From Chara braunii (lineage: Eukaryota > Plantae > Charophyceae): a stretch of DNA of 64,000 nucleotides. The translations under genes and the position numbers were made by a program. The stretch spans positions 2,709,592-2,773,591 of the forward strand of contig BFEA01000045.1 of assembly GCA_003427395.1 (NCBI GenBank), given 5' to 3'. Positions 26,170-52,490 of this stretch are shown piece after piece; the stretch's first letter is position 1, and each line of letters begins with the position of its first letter. Below the pieces are notes generated by a model that did no database searches, had not been told where the DNA came from, and saw only the letters and a list, made by a program, of their open reading frames with translations.

Positions 26170-29100
26170 CACTCATCTCCCAGTGTATGTGAGTTTCAAA
26201 ACTTGTCCTTTCTCTCATATTCTCCATCTTCTACTTGTTTTCCTACTTAGGTGTGAATCGTAACTCATATCTTCGTGTAGAGTAGTGTTTGAGTAGTGGT
26301 TTGTGTTTGTTTTGTCTATTCTACCTCTCCCAAGTGAATCGCAACTCTCTCCCTAGTGTTTGTGAGCCGAAACTTGTGATTTTCTCTCATGATCTTCATG
26401 TTTCTACTCATTTTTCTACTTGGGTGTAAATCGCAACTCATATGATGATGTCAACTTGTGTTTGAGAGTTGTGATTTGCATGTTTTGTCCTTTTCTTCAC
26501 TCCTATGTAAATCGCAAATCATCTCCTAGTGTATGTGAGCCCAAACTTGTGATTTTCTTTCATGATCTTCATGTTTCTACTCATTTCTCTACTTGGGTGT
26601 AAATCGCAACTCATATGTTGATGTCAACTTGTGTTTGAGCATTGTGATGTGCATGTTTTGTGCTTTTCTTCACTCCTATGTAAATCGCAACTCATCCCCT
26701 AGTGTATGTGAGCCCAAACTTTTGATTTTCTCTCGTGATCTTCATATTTCTAGTCATTTTTCTACTTGGGTGTAAATCGCAACTCATATGTTGATGTCAA
26801 GTTGTGTTTAAGTGTAGTGATATGCACGTTTTGTCCTTTTCTTCAGTCCTATGTAAATCGCAACTCATCTCCTAGTGTATGTGACTCCAAACTTGTGATT
26901 TTCTCTCATGATCTTCATGTTTCTACTTATTTTTCTACTTGGGTGTAAATCGCAATTCATATGTTGATGTCAACTTGTGTTTGAGTGTTGTGATGTGCAT
27001 GTTTTGTCCTTTTTTTCACTCCTATGTAAATCGCAACTCATCTCCTAGTGTATGTGAATCCAAACTTGTAATTTTCTCTCATGATCTTCATGTTTCGACT
27101 TATTTGTCTACTTGGGTGTGAATCGCAACTCATATGTTGATGTGAACTTGTGTTTGAGTGTTGAGATGTGCATGTTTTGTCCTTTTCTTCACTCCTATGT
27201 AAATCGCAACTCATCTCCTAGTGTATGTGAGCCCAAACTTGCAATTTTTTCTCATGATCTTCATGTTGCTACTGATTTATCTACTTGGGTGTAAATCGCA
27301 ACTCATATGTTGAAGTCAACTTGTGTTAGAGTGATGTGATGTGCATGTTTTGTCATTTTCTTCTTTCGTATGCAAATCGCAACTCATCTCCTAGTATATG
27401 TGAGCTCGAACTTGTGATTTTCTCTTATGATCTTCATGTTTCTACTCATTTTTCTACTTGGGTGTAAATCGCAACTCATATGTTGATGTCAACTTGTGTT
27501 TGAGTGTTGTGATGTGCATGTTTNACTCATTTTTCTACTTGGGTGTAAATCGCAACTCATATGTTGATGTCAACTTGTGTTTGAGTGTTGTGATGTGCAT
27601 GTTTTGTCCTTTTCTTCACCCATATGTAAATCGCAACTCATCTCCTAGTATATGTGAGCCGAAACTTGTGATTTTTTCTCGTGATCTTCATGTTTCTACT
27701 CATTTTTCTACTTGGGTGTAAATCGCAACTCGTATGTTGATGTCAACTTGTGTTTGAGAGTTGTGATGTTTTGTGCTTTTCTTCACTCCTATGTAAATCG
27801 CAACTCATCCCATAGTGTATGTGAGCCCAAACTTGTGATTTTCTCTCATGATCTTCATGTTTCTACTCATTTTTCTACTTGGTTGTAAATCGCAACTCAT
27901 ATGTTGATGTCAAGTTGTGTTTGAGTGTTGTGATGTGCATCTTTTGTCCTTTTCTTTACTCCTATGTAAATCGCAACTTATCTCGTATTGTATGTGAGTC
28001 CAAACTTGTGATTTTCTCTCATGATCTTCATGTTTCTACTCATTTTTCTACTTGGGTGTAAATCGCAATTCATATGTTGATGTCAACTTGTATTTGAGTG
28101 TTGTGATGTGCATGTTTTGTCTTTTTTTTCACTCCTATGTAAATCGCAACTCATCTCCTAGTGTATGTGAACCCAAACTTGTGATTTTCTCTCATGATCT
28201 TCATGTTTCGACTCATTTTTCTACTTAGGTGTAAATCGCAACTCATATGTTGATGTCAACTTGTGTTTAAGTGTTGTGATATGCATGTTTTGTCCTTTTC
28301 TTCACTCCTATGTAAATCGCAACTCATCTCCTAGTGTATGTGGGCCCAAACTCGAAATTTTTTCTCATGATCTTCATGTTGCTACTGATTTTTCTACTTG
28401 GGTGTAAATCGCAACTCATATGTTGATGTGAACTTGTGTTTGAGTGTTGTGATGTGCATGTTTTGTCCTTTTCTTCTTTCCTATGCAAATGGAAACTCAT
28501 CTCCTTCTGTATGTGAGCCCGAACTTGTGATTCTCTCTCAAGATCTTCATGTTTCTACTCATTTTTCTACTTGGGTGTAAATCGCAACTCATATGTTGAT
28601 GTCAACTTGTGTTTNNNNNNNNNNNNNNNNNNNNNNNNNNNNNNNNNNNNNNNNNNNNNNNNNNNNNNNNNNNNNNNNNNNNNNNNNNNNNNNNNNNNNN
28701 NNNNNNNNNNNNNNNNNNNNNNNNNNNNNNNNNNNNNNNNNNNNNNNNNNNNNNNNNNNNNNNNNNNNNNNNNNNNNNNNNNNNNNNNNNNNNNNNNNNN
28801 NNNNNNNNNNNNNNNNNNNNNNNNNNNNNNNNNNNNNNNNNNNNNNNNNNNNNNNNNNNNNNNNNNNNNNNNNNNNNNNNNNNNNNNNNNNNNNNNNNNN
28901 NNNNNNNNNNNNNNNNNNNNNNNNNNNNNNNNNNNNNNNNNNNNNNNNNNNNNNNNNNNNNNNNNNNNNNNNNNNNNNNNNNNNNNNNNNNNNNNNNNNN
29001 NNNNNNNNNNNNNNNNNNNNNNNNNNNNNNNNNNNNNNNNNNNNNNNNNNNNNNNNNNNNNNNNNNNNNNNNNNNNNNNNATTTTTCTACTTGGGTGTAA

Positions 29101-30992
29101 ATCGCAACTCATATGTTGATGTCAACTTGTGTTTGAGTGTTGTGATGTGCATGTTTTCTGCTTTTCTTCACTCCTAGGTAAATCGCAACTCATCCCCTAG
29201 TGTATGTGAGCCCAAACTTTTGATTTTCTCTCGTGATCTTCATATTTCTACTCATTTTTCTACTTGGGTGTAAATCGCAACTCATATGTTGATGTCAAGT
29301 TGTGTTTGAGTGTAGTGATATGCATGTTTTGTCCTTTTCTTCACTCCTATGTAAATCGCAACTCATGTCCTAGTGTATGTGAGTCCAAACTTGTGATTTT
29401 CTCTGATGATCTTCATGTTTCTACTTATTTTTCTACTTGGGTGTAAATCGCAATTCATATGTTGATGTCAACTTGTGTTTGAGTGTTGTGATGTGCATAT
29501 TTTGTCCTTTTTTTTCAGTCCTATGTAAATCGCAACTCATCTCCTAGTGTATGTGAATCCAAACTTGTGATTTTCTCTCATGATCTTCATGTTTCGACTC
29601 ATTTGTCTACTTGGGTGTAAATCGCAACTCATATGTTGATGTGAACTTGTGTTTGAGTGTTGTGATGTGCATGTTTTGTCCTTTTCTTCTTTCGTATGCA
29701 AATCGCAACTCATCTCCTAGTATATGTGAGCCCGAACTTGTGATTCTCTCTCAGGATCTTCATGTTTCTACTCATTTTTCTATTTGGGTGTAAATCTCAA
29801 CTCATATGCTGATGTCAACTTGTGTTTGAGTGTTCTGATGTGCATGTTTTATCCTTTTCTTCACTCCTATGTACATCGCAACTCATCTCCTATTGTATGT
29901 GAGCCCAAACTTGTGATTTTCTCTTTTGATCTTCATGTTTCTACTCATGTTTCTGCTTGGGTGTAAATCGCAACTCATATGTTGATGTCAACTTATATTT
30001 GAGTGTTGTGATGTGCATGTTTTGTGCTTTTCTTCACTCCTATGTAAATCGCAACTCATCCCCTAGTGTATGTAAGTCCAAACTTGTGATTTTCTCTCAT
30101 GATCTTCATGTTTCTACTCATTTTTCTACTTGGGTGTAAATCGCAATTCATATGTTGATGTCAACCTTTGTTTGAGTGTTGTGATGTGCATATTTTGTCA
30201 TTTTTCTCACTCCTATGTAAATCGCAACTCATCTCCTAGTGTATGTGAGCCCAAACTTGTGATTTTCTCTCACGATCTTCATGTTTTGACTCATTTTTCT
30301 ACTTGGGTGTAAATCGCAACTCATATGTTGATGTCAACTTGTGTTTGAGTGTTGTGACGTGCATGTTTTGCCTTTTTTCTCACTCCTATGTAAATCGCAA
30401 CTTATTTCGTAGTGTATGTGAGCCCAAACTTGTGATTTTCTCTCATGATCTTCATGTTTCGACTCATTTTTCTACTTGGGTGTAAATCGCAACTCATATG
30501 TTTGAGTGTTGTGATGTGCATGTTTTGTCCTTTTCTTCACCCCTATGTAAATCGCAACTCATCTCCTAGTGTGTGTGAGTTCAAAACTTGTCATTTCTCT
30601 CATAATTCTTCATCTTCTACTTGTTTTCCTACTGGGGTGTGAATCGCAACTCATATCTTGGTGTAGAGTAGTGTTTGAATAGTGTTTTGTGCTTGTTTTG
30701 TCTATTCTACCTCTCCCAAGTAAATCACAACTCTCTTCCTAGTGTATGTGAGCCCAAACTTGTGATTTTCTCGCATGATCTTCATGTTTCCACTCATTTT
30801 TCTACTTGGGTATAAATCGCAACTCGTGTGTTGATGTCAACTTGTTTTTGAGTCTTGTGATGTGCATGTTTTGTCCTTTTCTTCACTTCTATGTAAATCG
30901 CAAATCATCTCCTAGTGTATGTGAGCTAAAAACTTGTCATTGTCTCTCAGATTCTTCATTTCCTACTTGTTTCCTACTTGGGTGTGAATCGT
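26170..30992 (+). repeat. 173-bp tandem satellite, about 25 visible copies plus an N gap
   Basis: Near-identical 60-aa pseudo-ORFs recur every 173 bp (26420, 26593, 26766, 26939...). Each monomer has two GTAAATCGCAACTCAT half-units. A variant monomer occurs at about 26180 and 30570. The array is cut at 30992 by an LTR insertion. Confidence 0.97.
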
Positions 30993-32146
30993 TGTCGGGG
31001 CAGAAACCCTGACAAGGGTATCTGCCAGTGTTTTTCAACGTCGGACGCTGTCTGACCTTTTTACTTTATTGGAAGACTGGATCAAATTGATGTTGCCAAA
31101 ATTTATTCAGACCAGCGCTATGAGTAAGAGACTTAAAACTTTTTTGAACCTGACGTCGTCGACGCAGGACAACATCGACATTCGTGTGGGATAACGGGAA
31201 TCGGCACCGTCGTCCGCGGGTCCCGACGAGGCCGTAGTAGCATGCGGTCGTGGGAAAACTAAAGTTAAAGCCTAGGCTACCTATGATGAGGTCGCGCGGC
31301 TGTTAAGCCGCACGATTCAGGGCCTAAGCGGGCCAAAAAGGGGCCGCCGCGGCAAGATGGACCGCTGCGTGAAGGGATGGCTTAGGGTCCATACGGCTTT
31401 TGCGCCAAGGACCCGGGGGCGAAGGCGTCGAGGCCAGCTAAGTAGGGCAGTTGTTAAAGCTGTGGGCCGTCGACCCCGCCCGCCTGCCACGGCAATATGC
31501 TGGCTTAGCAGGCGAAGCCTCCTAGGTACCGTCACCAGATTACCACCCCGCAGACATGGGGATCGAACCTGACAGAGTGCACTACTGAGCTAGCTCCTTT
31601 TGGAGCAGCCGCGATTTGACAGAGGGTGCGACCGATTTTCGGTCGTGCGATCTTCGAGATCGCGCGGCTGAAATCAGCCGTGCCGTACGGATGCGATGGA
31701 GCAGCTACAACGCCAAGGTAAGGAGTTTTCTCCAATTTTTTCTTGGATTCGTTTTTTTTTTCTCTTTGTAGTGCGTGTACGATGGCGCCATCGTGGCGAA
31801 ATGACGTGACCGTTGGCTTAAGCCAACGGAAAAAGGAAAAGAAAAAAAAAAAAAAAAAACGAAGCGCCATCTGGCGCGAAAAGAAGTGACGGGGACTTAG
31901 TGTCCCCATAGAATATAACGGGCGCCCGTTTTTCGGGCAACCCTTTCGCATCAAGGTGGAGTTTTCCTTTTTTTTCTCTTTTGATTTTTTTTCTTTATTA
32001 GATCTTGCTTAGATTTTTATTTTTTTTTTTATTTTTTTTTTTATCCTTTCTAGATTAGGGTTAGATTTCTTTTTTTTTGTCCTCTTTCTTTTTTTCTCTC
32101 TTGTGGTGCCCGTTCGTTTCGGACGAACAGGCAGAGGCCACTGCAC

Positions 32147-32203
32147 CAGACTGTTTCGTCGGACCTCCACCGACTCATCAGGGGGTTGAACCCCGACAGT
32201 CTG
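32147..32203 (-). ncRNA. Type III hammerhead ribozyme (copy 1)
   Basis: Minus strand reads CAGACUG UC / GGGG UUCAA CCCC CUGAUGA GUCGG UGGAGGU CCGAC GAAA CAGUCUG. Intact core, three perfect stems, GUC triplet; predicted cleavage between 32195 and 32194. Confidence 0.95.
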
Positions 32204-32416
32204 CCCATGGGCAGTGAATGTGCCGCCCTAGGCGGCCAGATTCGGACAGAGAGAGAGGGGGAGAAAGGAGGGTGGAGGGAACTTACCTGGCCGTTGGCCT
32301 CCCTCTGCCTCCATTGATAGAACAAGCTGAACCGGATGAATCTTCAGCCCGAACGCGGGCAGATGCGCCGTGGGCCAGCCATAGTGGCTGTGCCCGTTGA
32401 AACAGGCAGGACGGTG

Positions 32417-32476
32417 CCCGACTGTTTCGTTGGACTTTCACCAACTCATCAGGAGGTTGAGACCCCGACAGTCGGG
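32417..32476 (-). ncRNA. Type III hammerhead ribozyme (copy 2)
   Basis: Minus strand reads CCCGACUG UC / GGGG UCUCAA CCUC CUGAUGA GUUGG UGAAAGU CCAAC GAAA CAGUCGGG. Intact core, compensatory changes versus copy 1; predicted cleavage between 32467 and 32466. Confidence 0.95.
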
Positions 32477-32609
32477 TAGCTCGTTCAAGGTGAGTGTTTT
32501 TTTTTCGGAAAAAGGCGGCGCCGTTCGTTTTAGTAACGGGCTGCAGTGTTTGCTGGCGCGCCCGAACCTGGCGTTGAAAGCGTCCGGACGTGGGCGCGGG
32601 GCAAAGGGT

Positions 32610-32662
32610 GGAAATAAGACCCTGTTGAGCTTGACTCTAGTTCGACTCTGTGAAATGACTTG
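32610..32662 (+). pseudogene. 53-nt fragment of cytoplasmic LSU (26S/28S) rRNA
   Basis: GGAAATAAGACCCTGTTGAGCTTGACTCTAGTTCGACTCTGTGAAATGACTTG matches the conserved eukaryotic LSU segment GGAAAGAAGACCCTGTTGAGCTTGACTCTAGTCCGACTTTGTGAAATGACTTG (recalled from memory) with about 3 mismatches. The flanks are not rRNA. Confidence 0.85.
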
Positions 32663-34907
32663 GGGGGGGGAGGGGAGTGCTCGTTCATTTCTCAGACGAC
32701 GAGTTGCCCCTGCCTTAGAGGAAAAAAAAAAAAAAAAAAAAAAGGGGGAGGGTAGAAGTTGGAAAAAGAAAAGGAAACGACCGTGGATCTAGCCGCGACC
32801 TCGGTCCAGATGCAAGTTTAGAAGTATTTGGACTATGGATAGCTAGCAGACTGTTGGTTTCAGCAGCCTGCTTGAAAATGGTTGAGTACAGCCATTTCTG
32901 GGCTGCGTCTGGCCGCGGGTGAAGGCCAGATGCATTACCAGGGTACAGAACTTGGTTCCCCTAGGGGAACATCAAGTTTTCTGGCCCTTGATCGCGATTT
33001 AGATCGAGGGTCAGGCTCTATTCCGAGATTTGGCTTGGGGCAAAGCAGCTGCCCTCAGCCTTCAGCCAGCTATAAAAGCTAGCCTGCCACCCAACAGCCT
33101 CACACTTGTGGCAATGCTGCTGGGGCATTCTACTCAAGTAGATGCTGGCTGGCTGGCTGCTGGTGTGATAAGGCGAAGTGCTGGAGGTCTGAAGAAGCAC
33201 TGGAGGAAGGAGGAGGCAACCATAGCTAAAAATTGGGAACTTTTTGCCCCACCTTCCGTGCTGTGCTGCATGCTGTGGGGAAGTCGTGGCCTTGAGGTTG
33301 CTGCTGGTTTTCTAGGGAGGTGCGGCGGAAGCACTGCCGAATTCTTGTGGCGACGGCACTGATTTTCTTGGCGGTACGGCGAGGGCGCTGCCGGATTTTG
33401 TGGCAACAGTATTTTGCACAGGACTGCGAGAAGGGGGCTTGGACGTTGCCGCAGGGACGGTACCGCCGAGGTGGAAGTGCATTTTGGAATAGAAAGGGTG
33501 TGGCGATCGTCTCGTTGGAGGCATTACGGCACGCGACACTTGTAAGAATTGTCGAGGCCGTTGTTATTTTTTTGCGGCATACCGAGTAAGTGGGGATTGG
33601 GTCTCGAACCACCAAGTTTTGCAGCAGGCAGGTGGTGACCTAACTTGGTATTTGGTGGGTTGAATTGGCGCTGTTTTGGTGGAAGGTGTGACGTTGAGGC
33701 TGTGAGATTTGAGAGTGGGGCACTCTCCTCAATGGCAAGCTCGCTTCTGTGTTGGTGAGCGGCGCCTAAGTCAGCGGCGGCGTTTCAAGGAGGGTGTGAC
33801 TTGTTCTTGTGAGCGCCCACAACGAGAGTGGTGCGACCGAATTTTTGTGAAGATATTTGGCTTTCTTGAGCGAGCCCTCATAAAAATCACTCAAGGTCAG
33901 TGCGACTCAGTTCCCTTGCACACCCGCGTGAACCCACACCTTGCATGACCTTGCTTTGAATTCAGGGGAAGAGGTAGAGTAAGAGTATGATGTCATGCGT
34001 GTGAAGAAAGGGCTGACTTGTCTTGGGGATGGATGAATCTCTGGATTGTTACTTTTCTTGATTGTGCAGGTAGGTTGGGAGATGCATGAGAGAAGGAATC
34101 ATCATTGTTTGCTCGGGAGAATAATAGGGATGCTCACCTTTTTCCCACTCAACCTGAATGCATGTGACAGAAAAGAGGAGAAACAAAAATAATAATGAAA
34201 GTGCGAACGGACGGGTGCCAAAAGAATGAAGGCCGTGAGAAAATTAAAAGAAAGGAAGACAAGGGAACACCTTAGTATCTCCCCAAGGATTTCCCCATTC
34301 TATCCCGAACGACCACTATCCTTCTATGCCCGGCTAAAAATATCTTACTTCTTTCTCTTCTCGATTTCGTCTAAGTCGACCCTTAGCCGGGAAGGCATAG
34401 ACCGGTCGTCTGCACCTAGGGTCTACGCTTCTTTTCTCTAGGAGGCATCTGAGGCGGGGGTTCGTTGCCTTAGGGGCCGGCCCTGTTATCGACTCGGAGT
34501 GGACCGCTTATGCGGGGGGATACCATGCTGTTGCAGTGGATCCAGCCCAACTTCTGAGTCCTGAACAATGTGTTTGGGCGAGGGGGAGAGGTATTCCAAA
34601 CCATTTCCTAGAGGGTAGGGTGTCTTGAAGCTAGGGGCAACCACCTCCTCGTGCTTTCAGGGAAAGGGGAGGCTGAATCTAGTACCCTGCTGGGTAGCCG
34701 TTTTAGGAGCCACCAACGCGTGGGAGGGCTGGCGCCACAAGAAGCCCAGCCCGTGATTCAACTAGTGTTAAAGGAAGTGCAAATAGGCACTACTTTCACG
34801 GTCGGACCGTGACACAAGAATCACTGCCCGAAAAGGGGAGCGAAGACTGAACATGAAAATTGGTATATCTGAATTTATTTTGACACAGTTACCGCTTCGT
34901 CGTTCAA

Positions 34908-35411
34908 ATGCTTGCAGAGACAGTGATCCTCCGATTGTTTAGCACACGCGAGGCGGCGGCTAATTGGTTAGCGGTGCCGACACGATCCCGCGCCGGTATG
35001 ATACGGAAAGGAAGACTGGTGTACAACCCACTTGAAGTTTACTCGGAATGGGATGTGCCACGATTCTGGGACGGGAGCGTGAGGAAACCACCGCGGTGTT
35101 ATATTTTCTTGGTTGAACCAAGCCAGCATATTGTACGATATGACTTCGCGTCGCCCTACCCGTATCGGGATTATGGAGACATAAACCTTGTCGTGATCCA
35201 CGAGGATTGTCCGGGAGTAGAGACCATTCCTGATATTAGAGGGATGTTCCTTCACATTGTACTCCACTTGAATGATCTACGAGGTCCGTTCGGCCTCCTT
35301 CATCATGTGAGACGGGTCCGAGCGAATAGATTTAATATCATTCGCTCAGAACATTTCGATGTCACCGCGTTTTATGACGAGGCTTGTGAAATTTACGAGA
35401 GCCTCTTCTAA
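34908..35411 (+). CDS. Unknown 167-aa accessory ORF in the second Gypsy 5' region
   Basis: ATG-started open frame with protein-like composition, preceded by acceptor-like TTTTGACACAG; followed by a further fragment at 35516-35866. Confidence 0.45.
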   Translation: MLAETVILRLFSTREAAANWLAVPTRSRAGMIRKGRLVYNPLEVYSEWDVPRFWDGSVRKPPRCYIFLVEPSQHIVRYDFASPYPYRDYGDINLVVIHEDCPGVETIPDIRGMFLHIVLHLNDLRGPFGLLHHVRRVRANRFNIIRSEHFDVTAFYDEACEIYESLF

Positions 35412-38400
35412 CAGGTGGCTTCTTCGATGTGCAGATGCCTAACGGACGCTGGGACTTCACTCAGGCCAGATATCTACTGATTCGCGATACTACGGACGAG
35501 GAGCTGATCCGGTGAGTGGAGCGATTATTACTGGTTCGAGATGGAGCGCCCACGCGGTGGATTGGTTTTATCGGCCTGCTCAGTGGTGGGCAGGAATTTT
35601 TTCCTAACTCGAGCGCAGATGTTTGCGCCAATGTGCCCCGACTTCCAGACGAGGTTCATGGATATACCTTGTACTTTCATCATGCGAGCAACCTCCAATG
35701 CCTTTCTCGGGTCATTGTGAGCGTCAAAATTACCCTATCCGGGAAGTGCTATGACTTCGTCCGGATTAAGGACACCACGACCACACACCTGTTTCGGATG
35801 CGTCAGCCGTTCCGCGCCATAGTCTGGAAGCTCGCCTCACGGATGACTTATCTCTATGATACGTAGAAGGTTCAAGTCTCGCGAGGTGGACGCGTCTCCA
35901 CCTTGACTTTTGACGACGAGGAGCTTACGCGACTCGACCGGTTAGAGGCTGAGGCCTGTGAGGGCCGACAGGTTTATCCCGACCAAGCGCACCCTCTTGA
36001 ATCAGGTGCCACTGCTAGTTGTCCTCATAGTAGGGTCACATCCACGTGACTCTACAGGGGTAATAATAACAAAATAAACAACAATCTTGTGTAGGTAGGC
36101 CAACCGGATGGATAGTATCTGGATCGCCCCGATGATAACACTATCATGCTTATGCATTGAGGGGTAATCGATCATTTAAATATAAACTGAGTAAATCGAA
36201 GAATGAATATTTGAAAAGGTGTTGATCGGGACAATGAGGACAAAGTAACAGAAGACGAAACAGTCCCACGCCAAGCAGCCTGGTGTTGGCGATGGCTACT
36301 TCGTCATTCGTGAAACAGAGAGAGTAATTATCACTTAGGGGGACAAAGCGACTAACGAAATTACACTCGCCCCTCCAAGTAGGTATACGTGGTACGGAAG
36401 CGTGGTCGAACCGAGAGTTCAAACATCGACCAGAGCCAGATCACTTGTGATCTGCATGGTATCATCGGTATTTACTTGTAGAAGTTGTGCGCGACAGACT
36501 TACCTATCGTGCCGTGTGCTGCTCGCCCGAAAGACGACGACGATGAAGGGGCACGTACCTGATCAAGTGCGCAGTTAGAAATAGCAGGTGCGTGGTTATC
36601 CTAGTGCATGGGAAATGTATGAACCTGACCGGGCATTTGCCTGGGTGCTTTGGTTAGAGAGTAGGAAGAGTCGCAGAGTAAGGACGATGGCGTTTTGGGT
36701 GTCGCGGGTTGCATCAAAAAGGGGAAAAACACGTACGGAGAGAGAGATTGGCCTACCTTGATCGATAAGGAGTACATACTTGGCTGTGGTGATGATCTAT
36801 GAGGTCGGCACCTTCATGCACGTTGGTTATGCTGACGTTAGCAAGCTGCTTCGCCGTTCGTAGATGGGATAGACTGACTGTGTGGTCGTAAGCCTGGGCG
36901 CTGAGTACAAGAGAGGGGACCGGCTCAATCCACATTTTGGAGGTGATGGTGCATGGTTGTTCCTAGCCGGTGGAAGTGGCCATTCCATTCCGTCAACGAG
37001 CGAGATCCAGCCTGCTAAGTAGCTACGCAGGGACCTTTCCTCATGACGAACTTCTTAGGGAGTTGTCAGACGGCTAGCCAACGGAAGAGCGAGGGGTGAT
37101 AGATCAGGAGCTCCCTAACCTCGCCGCTGCTGTTGCGGAAGTCGGGCTGTGATAGCAGGATATTGCCTTCGTCCGAACTTAAGTAAGAGTGGCCATGGAT
37201 CTTTGACCTCCAATCGATTACAGAGCACGCTGCGTGGTACTGTATGCAGAGATTGTATCTGTCTCTGGGTGCTACCAACGCTGTGTGTCTAGAGCATCGT
37301 TAGCCACCATGTAACTTGGTCGTTGCCGTATCTTTTTACTGCTCCATTGTTGTGCGTCCTACGGGTTACTTCGGCTGTGTAATTGCGACAACAGCTACTG
37401 CGGTTGCTGTTTGAGCTCCGCTGCTGTGTTCGTCTATGGTTACCACATACCGTTTGGGTAAACTGCGCGCCCATCCGGCTAGGTTGTGTAGAGTTGAGTT
37501 GGTCAAGGCTAGGGGCACTGCAGCTTGGAGGTGTGGCTGGGCTTGTCGAAGGTCGCTATTACGATCAGCGGGTCATTTGGAAAGCGAACAGCTGGTGGGC
37601 TGGTTGTAGTCAACCAAGCAGTTGTGCGTTTGGCCGCTGTTGCACCCGTTTGTAGCTCCACAGCTGTGCGCGCTACTTCTCATTACAGTTGGGTGCTCTA
37701 CTACGGCGGTTGTGGGGCTTGTTGCGGGCTGCTGCTGAGGCTTGCTGCAAAATTAAAGTTGTAATGGTGATTGGGCTACTCTTGGCTCTGCGGTATAAAA
37801 CGCACTGCAAGTGCCCGTGTTAAAGTTGTTGTATTCTTACATTGCAGCAGCTACGTGTTTAGTTGTTGGTCGGTATATTGCCCCACCAGACAAAGGAGCA
37901 GAGGGGAACAAGCTGATACAAGAAACGAGAAACCGCTGAGGCGGCTATGACAGATCGGGTGTTGACTGCTGCTGTTGCGATGTGAAGCTTACTGTCACGC
38001 AATACTTCCCGCTGCGAATTGCTGAGGATCGCCACGTACAGTTTGGTGGTGCTAGCTGCTGTAGTTGGGCTTGCTAGCTGCTATAGTGGTACTCGCTTTA
38101 CTGTTAACTTTGGTGATACCGTAGGTGCAGCTGTGTCTCACGGCGCCCTGTTGCTACACACGGCGGCCTGCGCACATTGAGCTGGGAGGGTTGGTGCGTT
38201 CATTGTGAAGGGGGGCTGTTACTGCGGTTTGGGAGTTCGTCAGGGGAACTCGGCTCCTCAGTTGGACTTTGGGGTTGACCAAGCTGTTACACTTGGCCAC
38301 CATTGTGGGGCCCTCAGGCGTTGAAGATGTGAAGGCCTTCTCACGCGAGTCTGAGTGCGCCCCCCTTGTACCTGAGAGACTCAAACTTCCTCTTTCTGCC

Positions 38401-40653: not shown

Positions 40654-43600
40654 ATGGTGGCTGACACGATGGGACCACATTTGGACGAGGAACAACAGAC
40701 CATTGTGTACCGAGCATCACCGGATCGTGCTCTGCGAGACCTCAAGGAGCGTATCCGATAGAACGCTCCATTGAGATGTGTAGAGCAACCCGACGATGGG
40801 GAGCCAGAGGTGATGGTATGTCCGGTCATTGGAGAACCAAGCAAGGCCGCCACGGTGGTACGAATGAAGAGTCGAACTGAGCCTCCGAGTTTTCGGCGAG
40901 AGTCGACTGTTCGAAGCTCACCTACGTACGAACGAAGAGATGCTAGAGGTGACCGAGGCAGGGATGACTGGAGGGACCAGTACATCCGGGAGCAGCTCTG
41001 GAGAGACAGAGAGAGAGCCACACCGCCCAGGCAGATCTATGATCCTCAGACGGGCGATTCATATTCCCTACCTTATGAGAGGAGGGATAGGTACATCATC
41101 TCGCACCAACCTTCGGAGTTCGACACCAGACCCCTCATTTTCAAAGGATACGGTATCACCGAGTATCTCGAGAAGTGGGAGCTGCACGCATACCGTAGTC
41201 AATGGTCGGAGGACGAATTCATAGATAACTTCTTGTTTAATACGGACCCGAGCTTGAGTCAAGTGATTAAAGAAGCCCGACCGAAAGATAGACGATGGAC
41301 TACCTACAAGGCCAGCCTCTACGAGCTTTTTAAACTGGAGGATGCCAGGAGCTGATGACTCAGGGTGAGGATGAGAGTGTTCAGGTCTTTGGGAGGCGAT
41401 TCCAGAAGATATCTGATGCCCTTATTGCGAAAGGGAAGCTGTCGGAGGTCGAGAGATGCACTATCTTCATCGGTCGACTGCCTAGAGGGAAGCATAAGGG
41501 AGTACTGAGGGAGATGCCTTATGATAAGTTAGACTTTGTCGCGGTACTCCAGTTGGCAATGAACGCTGAGGCCGATGACTACAAGGATTTAGTCTGGAGA
41601 GGAATGCAGCGGCGGATAGGTGTCCAGACTTCAACGATCAGCCTTGGGCAGAGCGGCGGTATTTGATGGACAGGGATAGACCACAACGAACGAGAGACAG
41701 AGAGACGGTGATAGACGAAGTGAGAGAAATGAGAGAAATGATGAAGGGGTTGGCCAGACAAATGACCAATATCGAGACAAAGACGGGAGCCACCACTTAT
41801 CGGGACAAGCCAGGGTCCCCCTATTCATTGCGATGGGACCGCAGGAACACCGACCCGTGGAGGAGCATCGAGGATAGAAACCCTCGCACACTAGCGGACT
41901 ATCGCGCGAGAGAAAGGGACGATGATGCCTGGCGACGTAGGCATGACGACATTGACAGAGACCGCCGGGGTGACAGGTATCGGGATTCTTTTAGCCGAGG
42001 GGGAAGACTGGAACAGTATCCACGCAGTCCCAGATATGGAGGGAACATGTACGGATACCGAAGCCCAGACAATTTTAACTCGAGGGACAGAGACGACTCC
42101 CGCGGCAGATGGGAATCGGACAGGGACCGATATCGTGGCGGTTACAAGAGGACAGAGCGAGGCGGAGGTCGCCGGGAAGACCCGCGCGGGCAGTATGATC
42201 GAGGAGGATATNNNNNNNNNNNNNNNNNNNNNNNNNNNNNNNNNNNNNNNNNNNNNNNNNNNNNNNNNNNNNNNNNNNNNNNNNNNNNNNNNNNNNNNNN
42301 NNNNNNNNNNNNNNNNNNNNNNNNNNNNNNNNNNNNNNNNNNNNNNNNNNNNNNNNNNNNNNNNNNNNNNNNNNNNNNNNNNNNNNNNNNNNNNNNNNNN
42401 NNNNNNNNNNNNNNNNNNNNNNNNNNNNNNNNNNNNNNNNNNNNNNNNNNNNNNNNNNNNNNNNNNNNNNNNNNNNNNNNNNNNNNNNNNNNNNNNNNNN
42501 NNNNNNNNNNNNNNNNNNNNNNNNNNNNNNNNNNNNNNNNNNNNNNNNNNNNNNNNNNNNNNNNNNNNNNNNNNNNNNNNNNNNNNNNNNNNNNNNNNNN
42601 NNNNNNNNNNNNNNNNNNNNNNNNNNNNNNNNNNNNNNNNNNNNNNNNNNNNNNNNNNNNNNNNNNNNNNNNNNNNNNNNNNNNNNNNNNNNNNNNNNNN
42701 NNNNNNNNNNNNNNNNNNNNNNNNNNNNNNNNNNNNNNNNNNNNNNNNNNNNNNNNNNNNNNNNNNNNNNNNNNNNNNNNNNNNNNNNNNNNNNNNNNNN
42801 NNNNNNNNNNNNNNNNNNNNNNNNNNNNNNNNNNNNNNNNNNNNNNNNNNNNNNNNNNNNNNNNNNNNNNNNNNNNNNNNNNNNNNNNNNNNNNNNNNNN
42901 NNNNNNNNNNNNNNNNGAAGAGGGACTGTCCTGACCTCAGGCGGGCTATAGATGAAGGACTTGTCGTGCTTGATGATCGTAAGTACGTCAAGTGGGCAGA
43001 TGACATCGGCGACGTGTCGATGTTCCCTTCGATGAAGGAGAACGTTGAAGCCAGGCATGTACGATCAAGCAAGGGTAAAGAAGTGGCAAGGAGCCAGAGT
43101 TTGCGGATGAGTTTGCCTTCCGATGACGGGGCGCCTGCGACACCTATACGGGTAGCAGCGACTAAGTCCGCAAGGGGGTCTTCCTCTAAGAAGACTGATA
43201 CTGATTATGTGATGGCAGAGAAAGATGGGCAGAGGATTGAAGGAAAGGAAGTTATACTTTCGTCGCGCAAGCGCGGAGCCCGGGAGTTTACTATGAAGAG
43301 CACATTGGATGATATAGATACGGTGGAGCCTCTCAGACGCGCGCTTAGGCAACCGATGCAGTGCACAATACTTGAATACTTGGCGGCTTCGAGACCTGCG
43401 CGAGATGAGCTACATATGATCACGCGCAAGACGCGCATTCCTCTGGGAGACGAAGTCCAGATGACTTCCAAACCAGAGGTACCCTCCGTGGCAGTATCGG
43501 GAGTGTGCGCTAAGGCAGAACGCGCAGCGACAGTATATTTGGATGAGATGGAAGGCGTGCCTCCTGACAAGTTTTACATTTTAGGGAGTGGGACAGTAGA

Positions 43601-43804
43601 GACCATCCTCAATGACGAGGTAGTCCTCCATGGGGTGATTGATAATGGTAGCGAAGCTGTCATCATAGATGAGGAGCTCGCAGTGCGATTGGGGTTGGAC
43701 CTCGACAGGTCTTACCTGTTCGAGATCGAGACAGTCGATGGACGAACGTAGAAGATCTTCGGGGTTTGTCACAAGGAGGCCATTGAGGTCGAAGGGTTGC
43801 GCGT
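40654..43804 (+). pseudogene. gag: Gag-protease of the second Gypsy element, interrupted at 43804
   Basis: ATG at 40654 is in frame with 40771-41355. Gag-like FKGYGITEYLEKWELHAYRSQW; RD/RG-rich region; end of a zinc knuckle (KRDCPDL) after the gap; protease GVIDNGSEAVII. Coding is lost at the TGTCGC junction. Confidence 0.88.
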
Positions 43805-46423
43805 TGTCGCTGGGCGCAATTTTGCATCTCACGGAAGATGCGTTTTCAGCAATATCCGAGAGAGTGTCCCATTTCTGAGTGACCGCGACCAACTCTCAGG
43901 GATTGGGAGTGTCACTCGCATTTGGATCTAAGTAGAGAGTGTCTGAGTGTGTGGGCGCGCGGTTTTAAGGTGCACATGATGTTGTTCTTATTGATGTTAT
44001 AGAGCCTGCGTTTCGCCGGTCAAGCTTAAGACTAAGCATTTTTTCTTCTTGTTGTTCTGACCACGATGTGCTTGCGCTTATGTGGGAGAACGACGTCGAC
44101 GACGGTGTTGCCCTTGGACAGTAATAGGAGTGTGAGGGAGTAGAACAGCGGCAGGGCCGTCGCGCGGTACGTACGAGTCTCAACGACCGTGGGATTAGTC
44201 GGTAAGTAGGAAGAGTGATATTAGAGTGTTTAGCTGCTTTAGCGGACCTACATGCGTAGCGGTACCCGTTTATTTGGGTTTTCGCTAGTATTAAACTCAG
44301 TGTTGGGACTATTGGTTACGGCAATGGATTTTCAAAGCGGAGGTACGGGGATCGAGGACAACAATTGGCCGCGATGGAGCGTTGGAGCAGTTAAAGGTAT
44401 CGAGGGGTTGAGGGCCCGGCGATGCTATCCCCCCTTGTTGCCGGCCCATTCGTGGGCCCGGTCGACGAAACTGAAGAGGGGCGCTGACGGTCTTCCCCAA
44501 AGCGCGAGTTTCCGAGGCTGATAATTTGTTTTTACTTTTATTTTTTTCTTTACTTATTTTAGTTGCCGGTCCTGTTTCTGGGACGAGGCACCAGTTTTTG
44601 TACCAAGGTAGTTTCGGGGACCAGCGAGTGTAGCTCAACTGATACACCCATGAACTCTGGAAACTCGGGCCAAGGAGTCAGCGTATGTGTCCACAGATGG
44701 GTGCGTAGCCAACGAGGCGGAAGAAGTCGAGTGGCGGGAACCTCCTGCAGGTCCACCGTCCACCAACCACGATCGGTTGTGTGAGGTTTGAGTATGAGCA
44801 TGCCCGGTTGGGGCCCAAAAGGTGGACTGTGTCGGGGCACAGTAAGGCGGGCGCACCGGGGCGGAGGCCGCAGCAACACTGACCCTGTCCAACTGTGTGC
44901 CTGGGACCCGTTCCATTCGACCTTCGAAGTTCTCATACGAATATTTGCTTACTACCACCAAGATCTGCAACGGGGCTTGCTTCACCCGGGATCGGGCTGC
45001 AGGCTTTGCAGCGGGCCCCGCGCCCTCCTGCTCTTCACGACGGCTGAGTATAGGCCGCATGCCTCAGCCCCATTTGTTTTCGGGACTGATTGATTCGGCA
45101 TGAGAAGTTGGCGCTCGCTGCTTAGCGGATTTCGACGTTCATGAGCACCGGGCATGCCGTCTATATCAACCAGCGCCATCGGTGGTGTCTGGATTAGCGC
45201 GCAGCTCAGTACCGGCCGGGGCACGGTCGAGCGAGGCCAGAGGAACAACGGTGGAGGCCCACAGCGATATTGCAGTGCACATCGTCTGTCGAACTTGGGA
45301 GGGGGCCGCAGCGATACTGGCGAGTGAATCGTTCGTCAGACTTGGGTATAGGGGCGAAATCGATCCGTCTTATAGTTGATTCCCTTCGGAGTTCTCCTCA
45401 AGATAGCGGAGCTAGCGGACGCTGCGCTGTGGAGCGGAGCCGATATCAATGAGGGAGGGCGGAAAGAGCAATCGGGGAAATAGGTGGGAGGATTCGAATG
45501 AACCTAGACGGCGGTCTGCGCTAGGTGCATCCGAAAACGAAGAAGAAGACGATGACGACGGTGACGGAGATGGTGAACACGACCGGGGGGAAGACGACGT
45601 CTCACTGGTTGCTTAATGAGATCGAGCGAAAGGATAGCATAGGTGGGGGATTTCAAGGCTGGCGACACTAATTTCGAGGTTAGAATTAGTAAGAGTTAGT
45701 AAAGAAAGAAGTTAGTAAGAAAAAGGTGTGCGCCGAGATGTCGAGAAGGAGAGCTATCGCGCGAGGAAGAAAGTCTATCTCGTTCGTTCCTTAACGAAAT
45801 CAGACGAGGTAGGATGTTAGATGGAGGTTTTGTCCCATTGCGAGTCAGATGGTAGAGTTAGATTTAGAATAGAGTTAGTAGTTTAGCCGTATCAGAAAAA
45901 CGGGGTGCGCGAATGTGGCGGGAGTGCAGCTATGGCAGAAGGCGAAATTTCAATATTTTGCTCGATTCTCTATAGAATCGAATGAACTAAGAGCGGATTC
46001 CGGGGTTCTAGGACCTCGCGAAACGATCTATAAAGTCAGATCAATGAGGCGGGGGGCGGAAATTGCAGCACGAGCAAGAGGAGCTGCGCCCACTGCGAGA
46101 AAAGTGAAGATCTGTATCTGACCGTGTTTTGGCGAAAGATTCATTTGAAGTTTTGCTCATTCAATCGATGGAAGTACCGTGAAGAGAGCCGCAGGTTGGA
46201 TACTTACCTGTTGGCCGATGCATTGCTCATCCTGATCGACGGCTTATTCATCCTGACTTAGCTGCCCCCTTGTATATTGCGAGTATATTCAGGTTCTGGA
46301 CTGATTGAACATGGCTGCGCTGATGGCCAGGTGCATTCAGGCAAAGAAGAGAGAGAGTCTAAGAGTAAATCGGCAGAGAGAAAGAGCCCAAACGAGGGAG
46401 AAGCAGACATTATCAGAGAGATG

Positions 46424-47197: not shown

Positions 47198-47245
<48 letters not shown>

Positions 47246-47789
47246 GGAGGGTAGAANNNNNNNNNNNNNNNNNNNNNNNNNNNNNNNNNNNNNNNNNNNN
47301 NNNNNNNNNNNNNNNNNNNNNNNNNNNNNNNNNNNNNNNNNNNNNNNNNNNNNNNNNNNNNNNNNNNNNNNNNNNNNNNNNNNNNNNNNNNNNNNNNNNN
47401 NNNNNNNNNNNNNNNNNNNNNNNNNNNNNNNNNNNNNNNNNNNNNNNNNNNNNNNNNNNNNNNNNNNNNNNNNNNNNNNNNNNNNNNNNNNNNNNNNNNA
47501 AAAAAAAGCGGGAAAACCCGCTTTCGCCCGCGCAACTTCAGCGTGGTGGGGTGTGTGTGTGTGTTCATGTGTGTGTGTGTGTGTGTCGAAGTGCCATATG
47601 CAACCATAGCAACCCATTCATGGGAATCTCCATTAGCCATAGATATACCATTAGTTCTGCAGGCAGTAGGATTACATACCTCGTCATCCTGGAGCCGCAA
47701 CCGTCTCTCCTCGTCCGCATCTGCTGGCAAACCAAGCACACACTTTTATGCATAAAGAAGATAAGTACAGCAAGGAGGAGGAGGAAGAA

Positions 47790-49684
47790 GAGTAGGGAGC
47801 GTGATGGTCAATGCCATCAACACCAGCAGTATAACTGGTGGAGGAGGGGTGGCGCATCCCCTAAAGCGCTTTTCGCCGCTTGCGCCTGTCACGGCTCATC
47901 AAAGGGTGAGGTTCCTCTGGCTCCCAGTGGTGGTGAGCGGGCAAGTAGTGAGGATTCGAGCAGTCGGTGTTCTGAGCCGAACTTACCACGTGCTCGTTGG
48001 CTTCAGCTTCGGCGAAGTATTCGTCCATAGCCGCCATTCCTGTCCACGTCCTTGATTGGAGATGGCCCGTCGTGATCGCAGTGTAAGGCTTCACTGCCTA
48101 CGATCTGCCGATCAGCACTCACAGCAGCAACGTTTGTTCACATGTGTGAACTATTAGCGACTGCTAAGGAGAAAGAAGTATGGAGATAGACAGCCTCCTT
48201 TCTCAGGTAGCGATGGAGGGTCTAGCCGTCCCATCCGCAGTACCGAGTCTGAGGTTGGAGCGAGGAGAGCAGGGAGGGGAGGTAGTAACGCAGGCAGTAG
48301 CTTGCGCAACCAACCGTGGGTCGCTCCGGCTGAAGATGCGGATGAACCCATTGGCCGCTTACTTTTAAGCAGGTGTAGTGAGGTGGAGATGCAGCTGGAT
48401 GGTGTGGAAGGTGTGTGCGGGTGTATGGGTATAGTTGGTGCGAGTGCAGGTGGTAGATTGCTGGGCTAGCGGGGTTGGGTAGTGTGTGGTAAGGGTGGCG
48501 AGTCGTGGGTGTGGTGGGGGTGTATGTAGTATGGTTTTTGGATTCATCACACCGGGGGGTGGTTGGAGAGTTTTTTTTTTTGTTTTTGTTCTTCGTGATA
48601 TGGGGGGTGGTTGTGTATGTAAGGATGGAAGGCGTGTATTCTTTTGGTAAGCTATGTCTTTTTGGCGGGTTCTCAGAAGTCAGTTGTTCGTTTGTGCGCT
48701 CATGGGCGGGGTGGGTCAAGTTGTGTCCGTTTGAATTTGCAGAGCTTTGTTTTTTATACTGTCTGCGTTTTGCTGTGACGTCACGTTTTCGGGTGATTGT
48801 CTGTATGTGTTTCAGTCAGTAGTGGAAGGAAGGGCGTGCTATTTTTAAAAAAATAATTAATTGAGTCTGCAGGTAATGTGTTGGCATTGTTCTGGTATTT
48901 TTTTGCGTATGTGTTTTGTCGTTTTTGTTCTTGTTTTTTGTTCTCAGAGCGTGTGGCCTGTTTTTTGTTTTTTGTTTTTTGTTTTTTGTTCTTGAGTTCT
49001 TGGTTTTTGCTAGCGTACGTCGCATTGCTCGTGTATGGGTGTGCCTTCTTGCATTGGGGGTGCGAGTTTGGGGATGGTGGGCGGGAAGGTGAACTCTGTT
49101 TATTTTGAAATGAGGTCCCGGGTTGGTTGTGTGGGTCTATTTATTTTTCATGACTTTCATGTTTAACTGGTAGTGCATAGAGGGTTGTATTTTTGTGTTT
49201 GCAGGTCATATGTGGGTATTGTTCTGGTATTTTTGTCTGTATATATGTTTTATCGTTTTTGTTCTTGTTTTTTTGTTCTCAGTGCGTGTGGCCTGTTTTT
49301 CTGTTTTTTTTTTTTTTATCTTTGGTTTTTGGTTCTTGCTTGTGTACGTCGAATTGCTCGTGTGTGGGTGTGCTTTCTTTTATTGGGGGTGCGAGTTTGG
49401 GGATGGTGGGCGGGAATGTGGTTTCTGTTTATTCTGTAGTAAGGTGCTGGGTTTATTGTGTGGGTCTTTTTTATCTTTCATTTTACATGTCCTTCCTACT
49501 TAATGGTAGTGCAGAGGGGGTTGTATTTTTTTATCTGCTGAGGTGTACAGATTTTTTTTTTATGCTTTGTTTATCGTGTCAATGGTAGTATGCAGTAGGT
49601 TGTACTAACAATGTTGGTAGGTCTGTTAGTGGTGATTGTATGTGTGATGTTTATCAATTTTGATTTTGGTTGTTTGTGCAGGTA

Positions 49685-49741
<57 letters not shown>
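47790..49741 (-). repeat. Downstream pseudo-LTR including (CA)n and an internal ~320-bp duplication
   Basis: Near-identical to 59805-61766; internal duplicate about 48866-49190 versus 49195-49530. Confidence 0.92.
47859..47906 (-). ncRNA. Minimal type I hammerhead, C3U core variant
   Basis: CCCU UUGAUGA GCCG UGACAGGCGCAAG CGGC GAA AAGCGCUU U / AGGG; identical to the 59874 copy except CUGAUGA is UUGAUGA. Confidence 0.7.
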
Positions 49742-49746
<5 letters not shown>

Positions 49747-49905
49747 CCTCGTTCCCACGTGATGGGGTTCATGAAGGGGAGCAGGTACGGATGTCGGACC
49801 TGTCCCCCTAATGGGAATGAGTCCTCCATCCGTACCGTCTAGCGATGTTTGCGTTAGCCACATACATTTTTAGTGAAATTGTTGTTCTATTATCGTGAGG
49901 GTTTG

Positions 49906-51980
49906 TCAGGGTAAGCATCTGAAGGGTTGGTATGTGTTTTGGTTGTTTAGTGTGTTTTTCGTTATTTGAATACATCTTTGTAGGGGGAAACCATTGTCAG
50001 TCATGATTCTTAGGAGCTTTTGGATTTGTATTGCTGCGTTTGTGCTGTCATTTTCTATTGTCATAATGGTGATGATTTGGGGGATCAGAGTTTTGAGTGA
50101 TTGTGTGATGGGGCGGTTAGAATCGAATTTAAGCAGTCGGATGATATTGAAGTTCAGTAAGTTTCTTTTGTCATACTTGTGGGTTAAGAAGGTGCCTTGT
50201 TGCGTGTTGGTTATTTTGATGGTTACGTTTAGAAAGTTGCATTCAGTACCAATTGGTTCAGGATTCATGGAGTATGTAGTTTGATCATTTAGCGTTACGA
50301 ATTTAAGGGGGTATAGGAAGTATACACTCCTTGGGCTAGTGATCTCTGGGTTAATGAATTTTTTAATGTAGGGGTTGTTGATCGTGTGTAAGTGGTCGAA
50401 GTATCTGAATGTGTGTGAAAAAAATGGTAGTAGGTGCTGATTTCTGTTGTGTGTGAGTTTTTTCATGAATTTATACTCAAATTTGAAGAAGTATATGTTG
50501 CACCATATGGGTGAGCAACTGACTCCCATTGGGATTCCGAGTGTCTGCCTCCATGTACGGTTGCCAAGGGAGGTGTATGCGTTGTTGATTAGCCATGTGT
50601 TCATCTGTATGATGTCTTGCGGAGAAAGGGAAGGTCTGGTTGGCTCTTGGTTTGCGGTCCAATAACATTTAAAGGTGGGTGTGTCCGTGTTCGTTCTGAT
50701 TTCATAGTGCAGAGTGACATTTCTTCCGTACGTTTTTCTTGCTGTAGTAAATGCTAGCTGGATGAAGAATGGGATGGTGTTTGGTAAGCCGTCCATTGAT
50801 TGGTCTGTCGGAACAGTTCCGTAGCAACGGGTTATGTCTGCCGCAAAAATATTGTTGATGTGGGTGGGAATGTTGTATATGTAGTCTGTTGCGGAGTCTA
50901 TGATCCACCAAAAAGGGACGTTTTCGCCAGTCTTTTGGAGTGTTTGCTCGGATAGTAGGCCACAGTGTTCTTGGACTGCTTCTTTGAGTTTATTTAGTAT
51001 CGTTGAACAGGCGTCTGCAAGTGGGGAGAAGATGACGTTGGCCGCATTTGTAAGCCAGCGAAATGTATTTTTATATTTTTTGTATGTGGCGAAGAGGTAG
51101 GGTATCGCGGGTTTTCCGAGTGGGATTGTGGGGAAGTGTACGGTGAGTTCTTGTGTGAGTAAATGGAGTAGTTCATTCTTGGTTAGGTGGCATGGTGTAA
51201 AGTCGGGTCCGGATAGTCGTTGTAGGGCAATGAATCTTATAAGATTGATACAGCAGACGGTCGGTGTGTTAGGTGCTTTGTCAGTCCCGGATATATAGAA
51301 GTGAGAGGTTATATACTTTATCTGTTTTTGTATTGCATGGTTGTGGGGGTTTGGTGCATTGTTTTTTGTGTATCTTTGTAGGCAGTTTGCCATTATTCTG
51401 TGTAGTTCCGTTGTGGCTGCAATGATTTGTTATTGTGGAATTGTATGTTCTGTTTGGAGTATATCGATTATTTTTGTCCAGGCCAGTGCACATTCATGCA
51501 TGACGGTATGTGGGTTGAGACAAGGGGGATATGGTTTAATACGTTTTCAATTAGTGTTCTAAGCTGGGGGTTTGTGAAAATTTTCATGTCCAGGGTGATC
51601 ACATGGGGTTCCATGTCTTCCAGGAGTATTGAGTTGGATATGTTGTTAATGAATTCCTTAAACCGGTGTTGTTGACAAAAACATTTGTCGTTTTGCTGTT
51701 CATACCATCCTTCTATTTCAAAGTTCTGAAAGACTGTTGTTGGTTTATACGGCGGTTGGGCCATGTGGTTGTCATATGTCCATCCAAACGTGAAGTTGTC
51801 AAGGACATTTTGGGCTTATGGGATGAATTTGGTGAGAAGAGTGTCAAAGAGTCTTCTGGGTTTAATGCGTTCGAATAGTTTGTTCTTGTAGTGGATGTGT
51901 ATTATGTGTTTGGGGTGTTCCTTGTTACTTTGCCAGCCGAGTCTTCCATGAGGGAGCCGTTGTAGTCTTCCGAGGGGTTC
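49906..51980 (-). pseudogene. Penelope-like reverse transcriptase with upstream CxC linker; inactivated
   Basis: ISGTDKAPN, IPYLFATYK, FRWLTNA, FAADITRCY, WRQTLGIPMGVSCSPIWCNIYF, FRYFDH (YxDD mutated), CNFLNVTI and HKYDKR. Upstream KCFCQQ...HVITLDMKIFTNPQLRTLIENVLNHIP. Stops at about 51430 and 51816, frameshift near 51525. Confidence 0.92.
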
Positions 51981-52332
51981 CTGCAGCCCAAATTAGCAGA
52001 GGTTTAGAACGCATTAGTTGGGCATGTCATTTCTGCCTTTTTTAGTTTACGGTGCTTGTTTTGTTTATTCGCTGGGTGTATGGGGTATCTGGATTACTTA
52101 GTTTATCAGACAGATTTTATGATTTTGCGTAGATTTCTAAGGGTAGAAAAAATACTGCAGAAAAGGTCATTTGTCCTATTTGTATTGGTTTTTTAGCGGA
52201 GTGGTCGGTGGAAGATACTATAAGGATGGTTTTTTTTTTTTTTTGATTGTGCGCGGGTGATTGCAGTATGTAGGAGTGATGGGGGGAAGAGGGGTAAGAG
52301 CGGCGGAAGGAAACAGCAGGGAGTGCAGAGGT

Positions 52333-52336
<4 letters not shown>

Positions 52337-52423
<87 letters not shown>

Positions 52424-52424
52424 N

Positions 52425-52484
<60 letters not shown>
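52337..52484. repeat. (GA)n microsatellite between ORF1 and RT
   Basis: Directly visible. Confidence 0.95.

Positions 52485-52490
<6 letters not shown>

Follow-up and report, generated by a model that had tools for sequence, protein, structure and literature searches.

A tandem pair of type III hammerhead motifs in an LTR-like repeat of Chara braunii and the transcribed hammerhead family to which it points

Results and discussion

The two hammerhead cores found in a 64-kb stretch of Chara braunii DNA (the window, i.e. the whole stretch that was analysed) belong, as diverged copies, to a type III hammerhead family that is abundant and transcribed in Chara. This family, which is apparently undescribed, is a stronger result than the pair, and the pair is, on present evidence, mainly a lead to it. 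Regarding the pair itself, we place moderate confidence in the explanation that two family members were captured as passengers by an LTR-like repeat and were kept because they are antisense.

Two complete motifs with pairing-preserving differences

Hammerhead 1, the upstream motif on its own strand, lies at 32417..32476 (-) and hammerhead 2 at 32147..32203 (-). In a comparison with the Rfam model RF00008 (Hammerhead_3; gathering score 48.5), hammerhead 1 matched at 32419-32474(-) with 49.4 bits (E 7.6e-8) and hammerhead 2 at 32148-32202(-) with 53.7 bits (E 4.6e-9), both above the gathering score and over the full model length. A preliminary description of the window had called two complete minus-strand type III hammerheads and had suggested an Infernal search as a check; the call is borne out by these matches. 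Both motifs comprise the features of the type III model, namely a conserved core (CUGAUGA and GAAA), an NUH triplet (GUC in both) and three listed helices of which helix III is open. The type III descriptor found only these 2 sites in the 64-kb window and none in 150 Markov simulations of 64 kb. In isolation hammerhead 2 folds as a hammerhead (z -2.4), and the secondary-structure probabilities are moderate for the motifs alone and poor in some contexts.

With C17 at 32467 in hammerhead 1 and at 32195 in hammerhead 2, the predicted cuts fall after these two positions and are 272 nt apart. The geometry that had been proposed for the double-cleavage product, a putative 272-nt RNA running from 32466 to 32195 on the minus strand (32195..32466), is thus confirmed from the coordinates.

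The two cores are 87.7% identical over 57 columns, and the alignment comprises about 97 columns when the hairpin following each motif is included. As described before, the differences preserve pairing in all three stems: stem II shows GUUGG/CCAAC vs GUCGG/CCGAC, stem III CCGACUG/CAGUCGG vs CAGACUG/CAGUCUG, and stem I one G.U vs G-C, with the remaining differences being two changes in loop 2 and a 1-nt indel in loop 1. In a simulation with 7 random substitutions (300,000 trials), the core and all pairs stayed intact in 0.1-0.9% of the cases, and two double-compensated pairs were obtained in addition in 0.01-0.09%. The compensated change of stem III consists of two transversions. That of stem II, read from the sequence, consists of two CpG-type transitions, which slightly weakens the covariation of this stem. 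The earlier interpretation of the covariation as selection on this pair is not supported, since variation in these helices is also present in numerous other hammerheads of Chara and the covariation of the pair may therefore be inherited from the source family.

The hammerhead family in RNA and DNA

For the RNA, 6-13% of each of three stranded oligo-dT runs was read and aligned at an identity of at least 85%. The matching reads amounted to 1790, 5065 and 2643, and all but 4, 57 and 11 of them fit only partly. Per strand class, the RNA depth was 128-590 in the bin of hammerhead 2 compared to 3-14 in the bin of the spacer. At position 32165, 770 of the 786 plus-mate reads in run X21 (~98%) carry a letter other than that of this locus; the form present in about 98% of the expressed relatives lacks the private loop-2 changes of hammerhead 2. 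The library can be oriented by the rRNA reads at 32563-32683 (326 vs 14 in X22), and given that orientation about 2/3 of the hammerhead reads originate from ribozyme-sense RNA and about 1/3 from antisense RNA (~2:1). Runs with a share of 0.05 were left out of the evidence, among them X14, which covers the cores and the rRNA scrap described below.

The genomic data are contigs of three Chara DNA runs (X1, X2 and X3), all from one study that is possibly the source of the assembly. Hundreds of genomic contigs match the core and then continue into other flanks. The loose ends at the hammerhead borders in X2 comprise 40-133 contigs each, among the best listed, where one contig may count at both hammerheads. 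Furthermore, five contigs join one core to another core (joints 32460 to 32146/7), with intervening sequence between the two.

Read by eye and as reverse complements, the 30-letter flank consensuses form an extended helix III, and this complementarity is what links the 5' and the 3' consensus, which were obtained from separate reads. A CUG/CAG helix is common to two flank types and hammerhead 2. In one flank type GCAU/AUGC closes this helix and in the other GAGGGG/CCCCUC, after which a U-run follows. Across the copies, position 2 of stem I is A-U, G.U or G-C. The commonest flank type in the DNA has 13 nt of its 5' flank in common with hammerhead 2 and shares most of the first 20 nt of the 3' flank of hammerhead 1. 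One flank type carries a GUU triplet, and hundreds of reads per run cross its cut site, so that those RNAs are uncut, religated or antisense. In other relatives, (AT)n or (GT)n adjoins stem I, and for a third expressed flank type at 32425/32461 no convincing fold was obtained. A reading of one family flank as a PPT plus LTR start was dropped, since the same letters pair as helix III.

The exact degenerate core pattern matched neither viral nor metagenome contigs (0 each). A type III family of Chara or of charophytes was not found in a literature search by title and start of abstract, with most subscription papers outside its scope. The only published Chara hammerheads found are the type I motifs of Penelope-like elements described in the available text of PMC8557442 (Craig et al. 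2021); the supplement of that paper gave no match to six core and rRNA motifs, a weak result as line breaks split its sequences. The main text of bioRxiv 10.1101/2022.07.19.500677 does not mention Chara, and its 1KP transcriptome supplements may hold such RNAs. The preliminary description had considered as an alternative that the pair is a copy of a known retrozyme family, which comes close to what was found, except that the family appears to be undescribed.

Most descriptions of genomic type III hammerheads and LTR retrozymes come from flowering plants. Their acquisition by horizontal transfer, with bacteria or insects as donors, has been suggested (PMC7761336). If true, an abundant and expressed type III family in a charophyte would represent an older source within the plant lineage and would bear on ideas concerning the origins of viroid-like RNAs.

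The repeat that hosts the pair

The pair is located in a 5.5-kb multicopy LTR-like block at 30993..36496 (+), delimited by depth, termini and a motif scan. The block starts with TGTCG and ends with CGACA, i.e. it shows TG...CA ends with a short inverted repeat, and a TATA-like motif was matched at 33070..33078 (+), about 600 nt from the hammerhead pair and on the other strand. In X2, the bins of the block outside the ribozymes showed a depth of 1459-25203 (345 in one low-complexity bin), which as contig depth is not copy number. Beyond 36533 the depth was 16-36, a drop of about 100-fold that places the right edge near 36500. On the left side, the DNA is multicopy from 30990 and TGTCG starts at 30993, right after a 173-bp satellite ending at 30991. 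This satellite forms an array from 26171 to 30991 with about 25 units that are roughly 90% alike.

No second copy of the block, as a partner LTR, was found within the 64-kb window, and no PBS or PPT by motif scan. A tRNA-Met PBS motif was without match in 30.9-41 kb on either strand, and no TSD surrounds the block, its flanks ATCGT and GACTT being different. The missing partner LTR, PBS, PPT, TSD and link to gag-pol lower the probability that the block is an LTR, not that it is LTR-like; "LTR-like" is a fair label and the LTR identity is putative. The LTR-like region of the preliminary description is therefore retained in the form of the multicopy block with its TGTCG/CGACA ends, while the connection of the downstream gag to the block, and with it the view of the hammerheads as antisense to their own downstream gag, is not supported by the intervening DNA. 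Between the block and the gag-like region at 40.6 kb there are at least 1.6 kb of single-copy DNA (36533-38190), a (TA)n run and an assembly gap (N). The gag-protease frame at 42918-43748 has 78 relatives, each of them named Chara braunii.

The multicopy block contains open frames of 175 aa (34884-35408) and 116 aa within 34884-35866 (+). Pfam gave no credible family in any frame of the block, including the 116-aa frame. For the 175-aa frame, which may be a decayed gene, neither relatives of near or greater length nor a usable Atlas match were obtained. No tRNA genes were found in the 64-kb window, and a scan for bacterial promoters and terminators, which is unsuited to this host, yielded nothing above shuffles.

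Insertions starting with TGTCG were observed at 8152, 30993 and 43805, each preceded by CGT, and this suggests a CG-centred target preference. An identical junction of an A-run and GGGGGAGGGTAGAA occurs at 32722-32757 and 47221-47256 in two different LTR-like insertions, namely the 5.5-kb block and the insertion at 43805, and may mark a shared promoter-proximal segment of such insertions by its A-run and 14 nt.

Probable capture as passengers

Next to the pair, a diverged LSU rRNA scrap was detected at 32605..32675 (+), antisense to the hammerheads. It matches RF02543 from model position 2396, with the best match to about 2460, at E 2.3e-5 in a 123-nt scan and only E 1 in a 311-nt Rfam scan. 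In X22, 380 reads run from this scrap into rRNA-like sequence. A further diverged LSU rRNA fragment of about 330 nt (44885-45213 (-), 118 bits) lies within the insertion starting with TGTCG at 43805. The occurrence of rRNA scraps in two LTR-like insertions suggests an uptake of abundant cellular RNAs by such regions. Rfam did not detect a second rRNA-like piece at about 32666-32720(-), which is not claimed. The insertion at 43805 interrupts a gag-protease frame.

In the explanation that we favour, the source of the pair would be diverged members of the abundant, transcribed Chara family, which were likely captured together with the rRNA scrap into the variable upstream part of the 5.5-kb repeat, the probable route being template switching during reverse transcription. 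Capture of sequences into LTRs by aberrant template switching is documented (PMC13317346). Like the BARE-2 and Veju TRIMs described there, the block would carry foreign RNA-derived sequence inside an LTR-like region; unlike in those captures, the pieces in Chara are ribozymes and rRNA scraps, and no such case was seen in the available text of PMC13317346. The survival of the pair could be explained by its orientation antisense to the putative promoter of the repeat, as a hammerhead in the sense direction would cleave the RNA of the element itself. In this view, the differences that preserve structure probably reflect selection in the mobile source family, for which self-cleavage of its RNA would be necessary, and the pair would have no function at this locus.

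Depth and variation of the module

The hairpin that follows hammerhead 2 showed a depth of 407-435 in X2 (single-copy 14), 142 in X3 (single-copy 7) and 16 in X1 (single-copy about 5). This corresponds to about 20-28x the single-copy depth in X2 and X3, resembling the thinnest parts of the block, and to only about 3x in X1. Indel variants of the hairpin flank were seen in several contigs, and two other contigs join the hairpin (at 32128) to a core through different linkers. A 455-nt contig covers 32185-32639 with one difference and thus comprises the spacer, hammerhead 1 and the rRNA scrap; its depth is single-copy, a value in which the spacer is not separable from the adjacent cores, and as it crosses the hammerhead 1 core with its many relatives it is compatible with further copies that are 85-90% identical. 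Given the hairpin depth in X2 and X3, a module of hammerhead and hairpin could belong regularly to the repeat family. The two cores are entirely preserved, although this copy departs from its relatives at many other positions.

These data bear on a rival explanation that we consider improbable, in which a giant-LTR retrotransposon family would carry the pair as a module that is fixed, under selection and cuts antisense transcripts of the promoter region twice, which would limit dsRNA and silencing. It would agree with the multicopy block, its TG...CA ends and its TATA-like motif on the opposite strand, with the high depth and the indel variants of the hairpin flank, and with two intact cores, for which the neutral probability is <1%. 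It conflicts with the missing second LTR, PBS, PPT, TSD and linked gag-pol, with the different linkers through which the two other hairpin-bearing contigs reach a core, and with the private loop-2 changes of hammerhead 2, which are foreign to nearly all expressed relatives. Nor was there any sign of minus-strand RNA over the spacer. If the pair were fixed in a giant LTR, a ribozyme would be used by a retrotransposon against its own antisense RNA.

Spacer, predicted folding and activity

The spacer had been described as not being a simple repeat. This is right, but the two motifs stay homologous for about 35 nt beyond each ribozyme, and this stretch reaches into a third hairpin, which had been overlooked. 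Based on local alignment and folds, this hairpin lies at 32391..32408 (-) on the 3' side of hammerhead 1 and is homologous to the one following hammerhead 2, a longer hairpin at 32107..32133 (-) that was identified by folds and is also joined to hammerhead cores in other genomic contigs. Compared to the next unit upstream, the 272-nt unit showed no similarity (score -52; shuffles -65 +/- 13), downstream the local alignment gave no homology beyond the ribozyme and the hairpin, and no tandem repeats were called at the hammerhead pair.

The 272-nt RNA folds with -107.3 kcal/mol (z -2.26), and 4 of 200 shuffles were as good. In the folding models, helix III of hammerhead 1 reaches a probability of 0.86-0.93 for transcripts that begin no more than about 250 nt upstream and stop shortly after the hammerhead, while its helix I reaches only about 0.2. 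In a growing transcript that starts at the first cut, the helix probabilities of hammerhead 2 are 0.00-0.13, i.e. the motif is predicted to be masked, and they rise to 0.28-0.56 once the transcript extends about 80 nt beyond the motif. Judged by sequence, the tract CCUCCACC in the spacer (32271..32278 (-)) is complementary to GGUGGAGG of hammerhead 2 (32164-32171), and the two private loop-2 changes of hammerhead 2 create this 8-nt match. Pairing with the spacer tract is likely the cause of the predicted block. Blocked hammerhead folds are also predicted for active retrozyme RNAs (PMC4918200), and the masking of hammerhead 2 therefore does not prove inactivity.

In the three oligo-dT runs (6-13% read), no 32195/32466 back-junction was found, which is a weak test as oligo-dT libraries miss circles and uncapped, tail-less fragments. 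The same runs listed no joints of any kind and showed no pile-up of read ends and no sign of spacer transcripts, minus strand included. This copy appears silent. If formed, a minus-strand transcript would, according to the folding models, likely be cut at least at hammerhead 1. With a seemingly silent copy and the predicted masking of hammerhead 2, circles of 272 nt would form rarely or not at all. The proposed circRNA production thus finds no support in the poly(A) data, which contain neither spacer transcripts nor joints, or in the models, in which hammerhead 2 is blocked within the 272-nt RNA.

Comparison with known retrozymes

In plant LTR retrozymes the ribozymes lie in direct repeats of 300-400 bp around a core of 300-600 bp, accompanied by a tRNA-Met PBS, a PPT and a 4-bp TSD, and the RNAs comprise 600-1000 nt (PMC4918200). 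The Chara sequences resemble them in the canonical type III motif, the genome of the plant lineage, the non-coding and transcribed nature and the predicted blocked folds, as well as in the occurrence of solo motifs and of close tandems about 90% alike (PMC4918200). They differ in the repeat of only about 100 nt (57 nt for the ribozyme, about 97 columns with the hairpin), the period of 272 nt, the PBS and PPT that were not found and the charophyte host, and the architecture of plant LTR retrozymes is therefore not present. In the table of PMC4918200, which is based on databases of August 2014, Chara is absent and the Chlamydomonas and Selaginella entries are footnoted as type I.

Metazoan non-LTR retrozymes are near-identical tandem units with type I hammerheads (PMC7761336; bioRxiv 10.64898/2026.07.22.740005). 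A period within 150-300 bp, the lack of LTR, PBS and PPT, and a high copy number are shared with them (PMC7761336), as is the co-occurrence with Penelope-like elements, one of which lies in this window. Unlike in non-LTR retrozymes, the Chara pair is of type III and its units share only the ribozyme and the hairpin. Head-to-tail homologous monomers of 150-400 bp are thus not present: the length fits, but the flanking units are unrelated outside the ribozyme and hairpin. By analogy, the pair would work like a retrozyme ribozyme but belongs to neither retrozyme class as defined.

With rather low probability, the pair could be the remnant of a small retrozyme-like unit that moved via the 272-nt circular RNA and was inserted into the block as one piece, with two ribozyme-plus-hairpin repeats of about 100 nt around a unique core. 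The 272-nt period lies within the 150-400 bp of tandem retrozyme monomers (PMC4918200), the repeat extends into the shared hairpin, the 272-nt RNA folds better than 196 of 200 shuffles, tandem hammerheads are found in other contigs through the joints given above, and RNA of both polarities, about 2:1 in the Chara family, is reported for retrozymes as well (PMC9695139). All this is opposed by the dissimilar upstream unit, by the homology downstream that is restricted to ribozyme and hairpin, by the missing tRNA-Met PBS motif and back-junction in the respective searches, and by the spacer, which was seen only as a single-copy contig.

A joint claim would be that the family, with its very high copy number and strong transcription, represents a third retrozyme architecture in the algal relatives of land plants (type III, with a covarying extended helix III and a U-run in place of the hallmarks of LTR retrozymes) and that the pair is at the same time a circle-releasing, antisense-destroying pair domesticated by a giant LTR; we regard this combination as doubtful. 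The data lend no support to an LTR module dedicated to circRNA production or to the destruction of antisense RNA, although such a module may exist.

The observed/expected ratio of CpG is 0.67 over the hammerhead pair compared to 0.94 for the 5.5-kb block, and the motif AACGG occurs in 9 copies in the 900 bp around the pair. Both values would suit a local duplication of one hammerhead-plus-hairpin followed by drift, where the CpG-type transitions of stem II would reflect CpG decay, further compensation chance, and the third hairpin might be a DNA motif of repeated AACGG. We consider this very unlikely, given the neutral probability of 1e-4 to 9e-4 for the observed pattern, the two transversions in stem III and the different flanks that the two hammerheads share with the genome-wide family. 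A reading of the two 100-nt repeats as mini-LTRs in either orientation was rejected by eye, as PBS, PPT and matching ends are missing and no purine tract, read from the sequence, abuts either repeat.

The region 31700-32600 contains about 10 AACGG/CCGTT motifs per kb compared to about 2 per kb elsewhere, several of them as inverted pairs. The AACGG motif is associated with cell-cycle enhancers. Splice-donor-like sites in the same region number three on the plus strand and one on the minus strand.

A Penelope-like element in the window

Chara braunii harbours the Penelope-like elements Chlamys-2/3/5_cBra and PLE-X1_cBra, the type I hammerheads of which are in most cases of the minimal form that has a palindromic helix III (Craig et al. 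2021, PMC8557442). The pair described here is similar to the Chlamys/PLE-X hammerheads in its host and in being carried by a retroelement; unlike those minimal type I motifs in pseudo-LTRs, it belongs to type III and its helix III is long, and no PLE frame lies nearby.

A Penelope-like element was observed elsewhere in the window at 47787-61749 (-), with 2-kb direct repeats at 47787-49741 and 59802-61749 that are 96% identical. Its frame at 54429-55469 resembles, by eye, PLE-X1/X2_cBra. Each 2-kb repeat contains a minimal type I hammerhead-like motif, undetected by Rfam, with a palindromic helix III as in PLE-X1_cBra (about 59922-59870), and in the copy at 47905 C3 is changed to U. The Penelope-like element is of a known kind.
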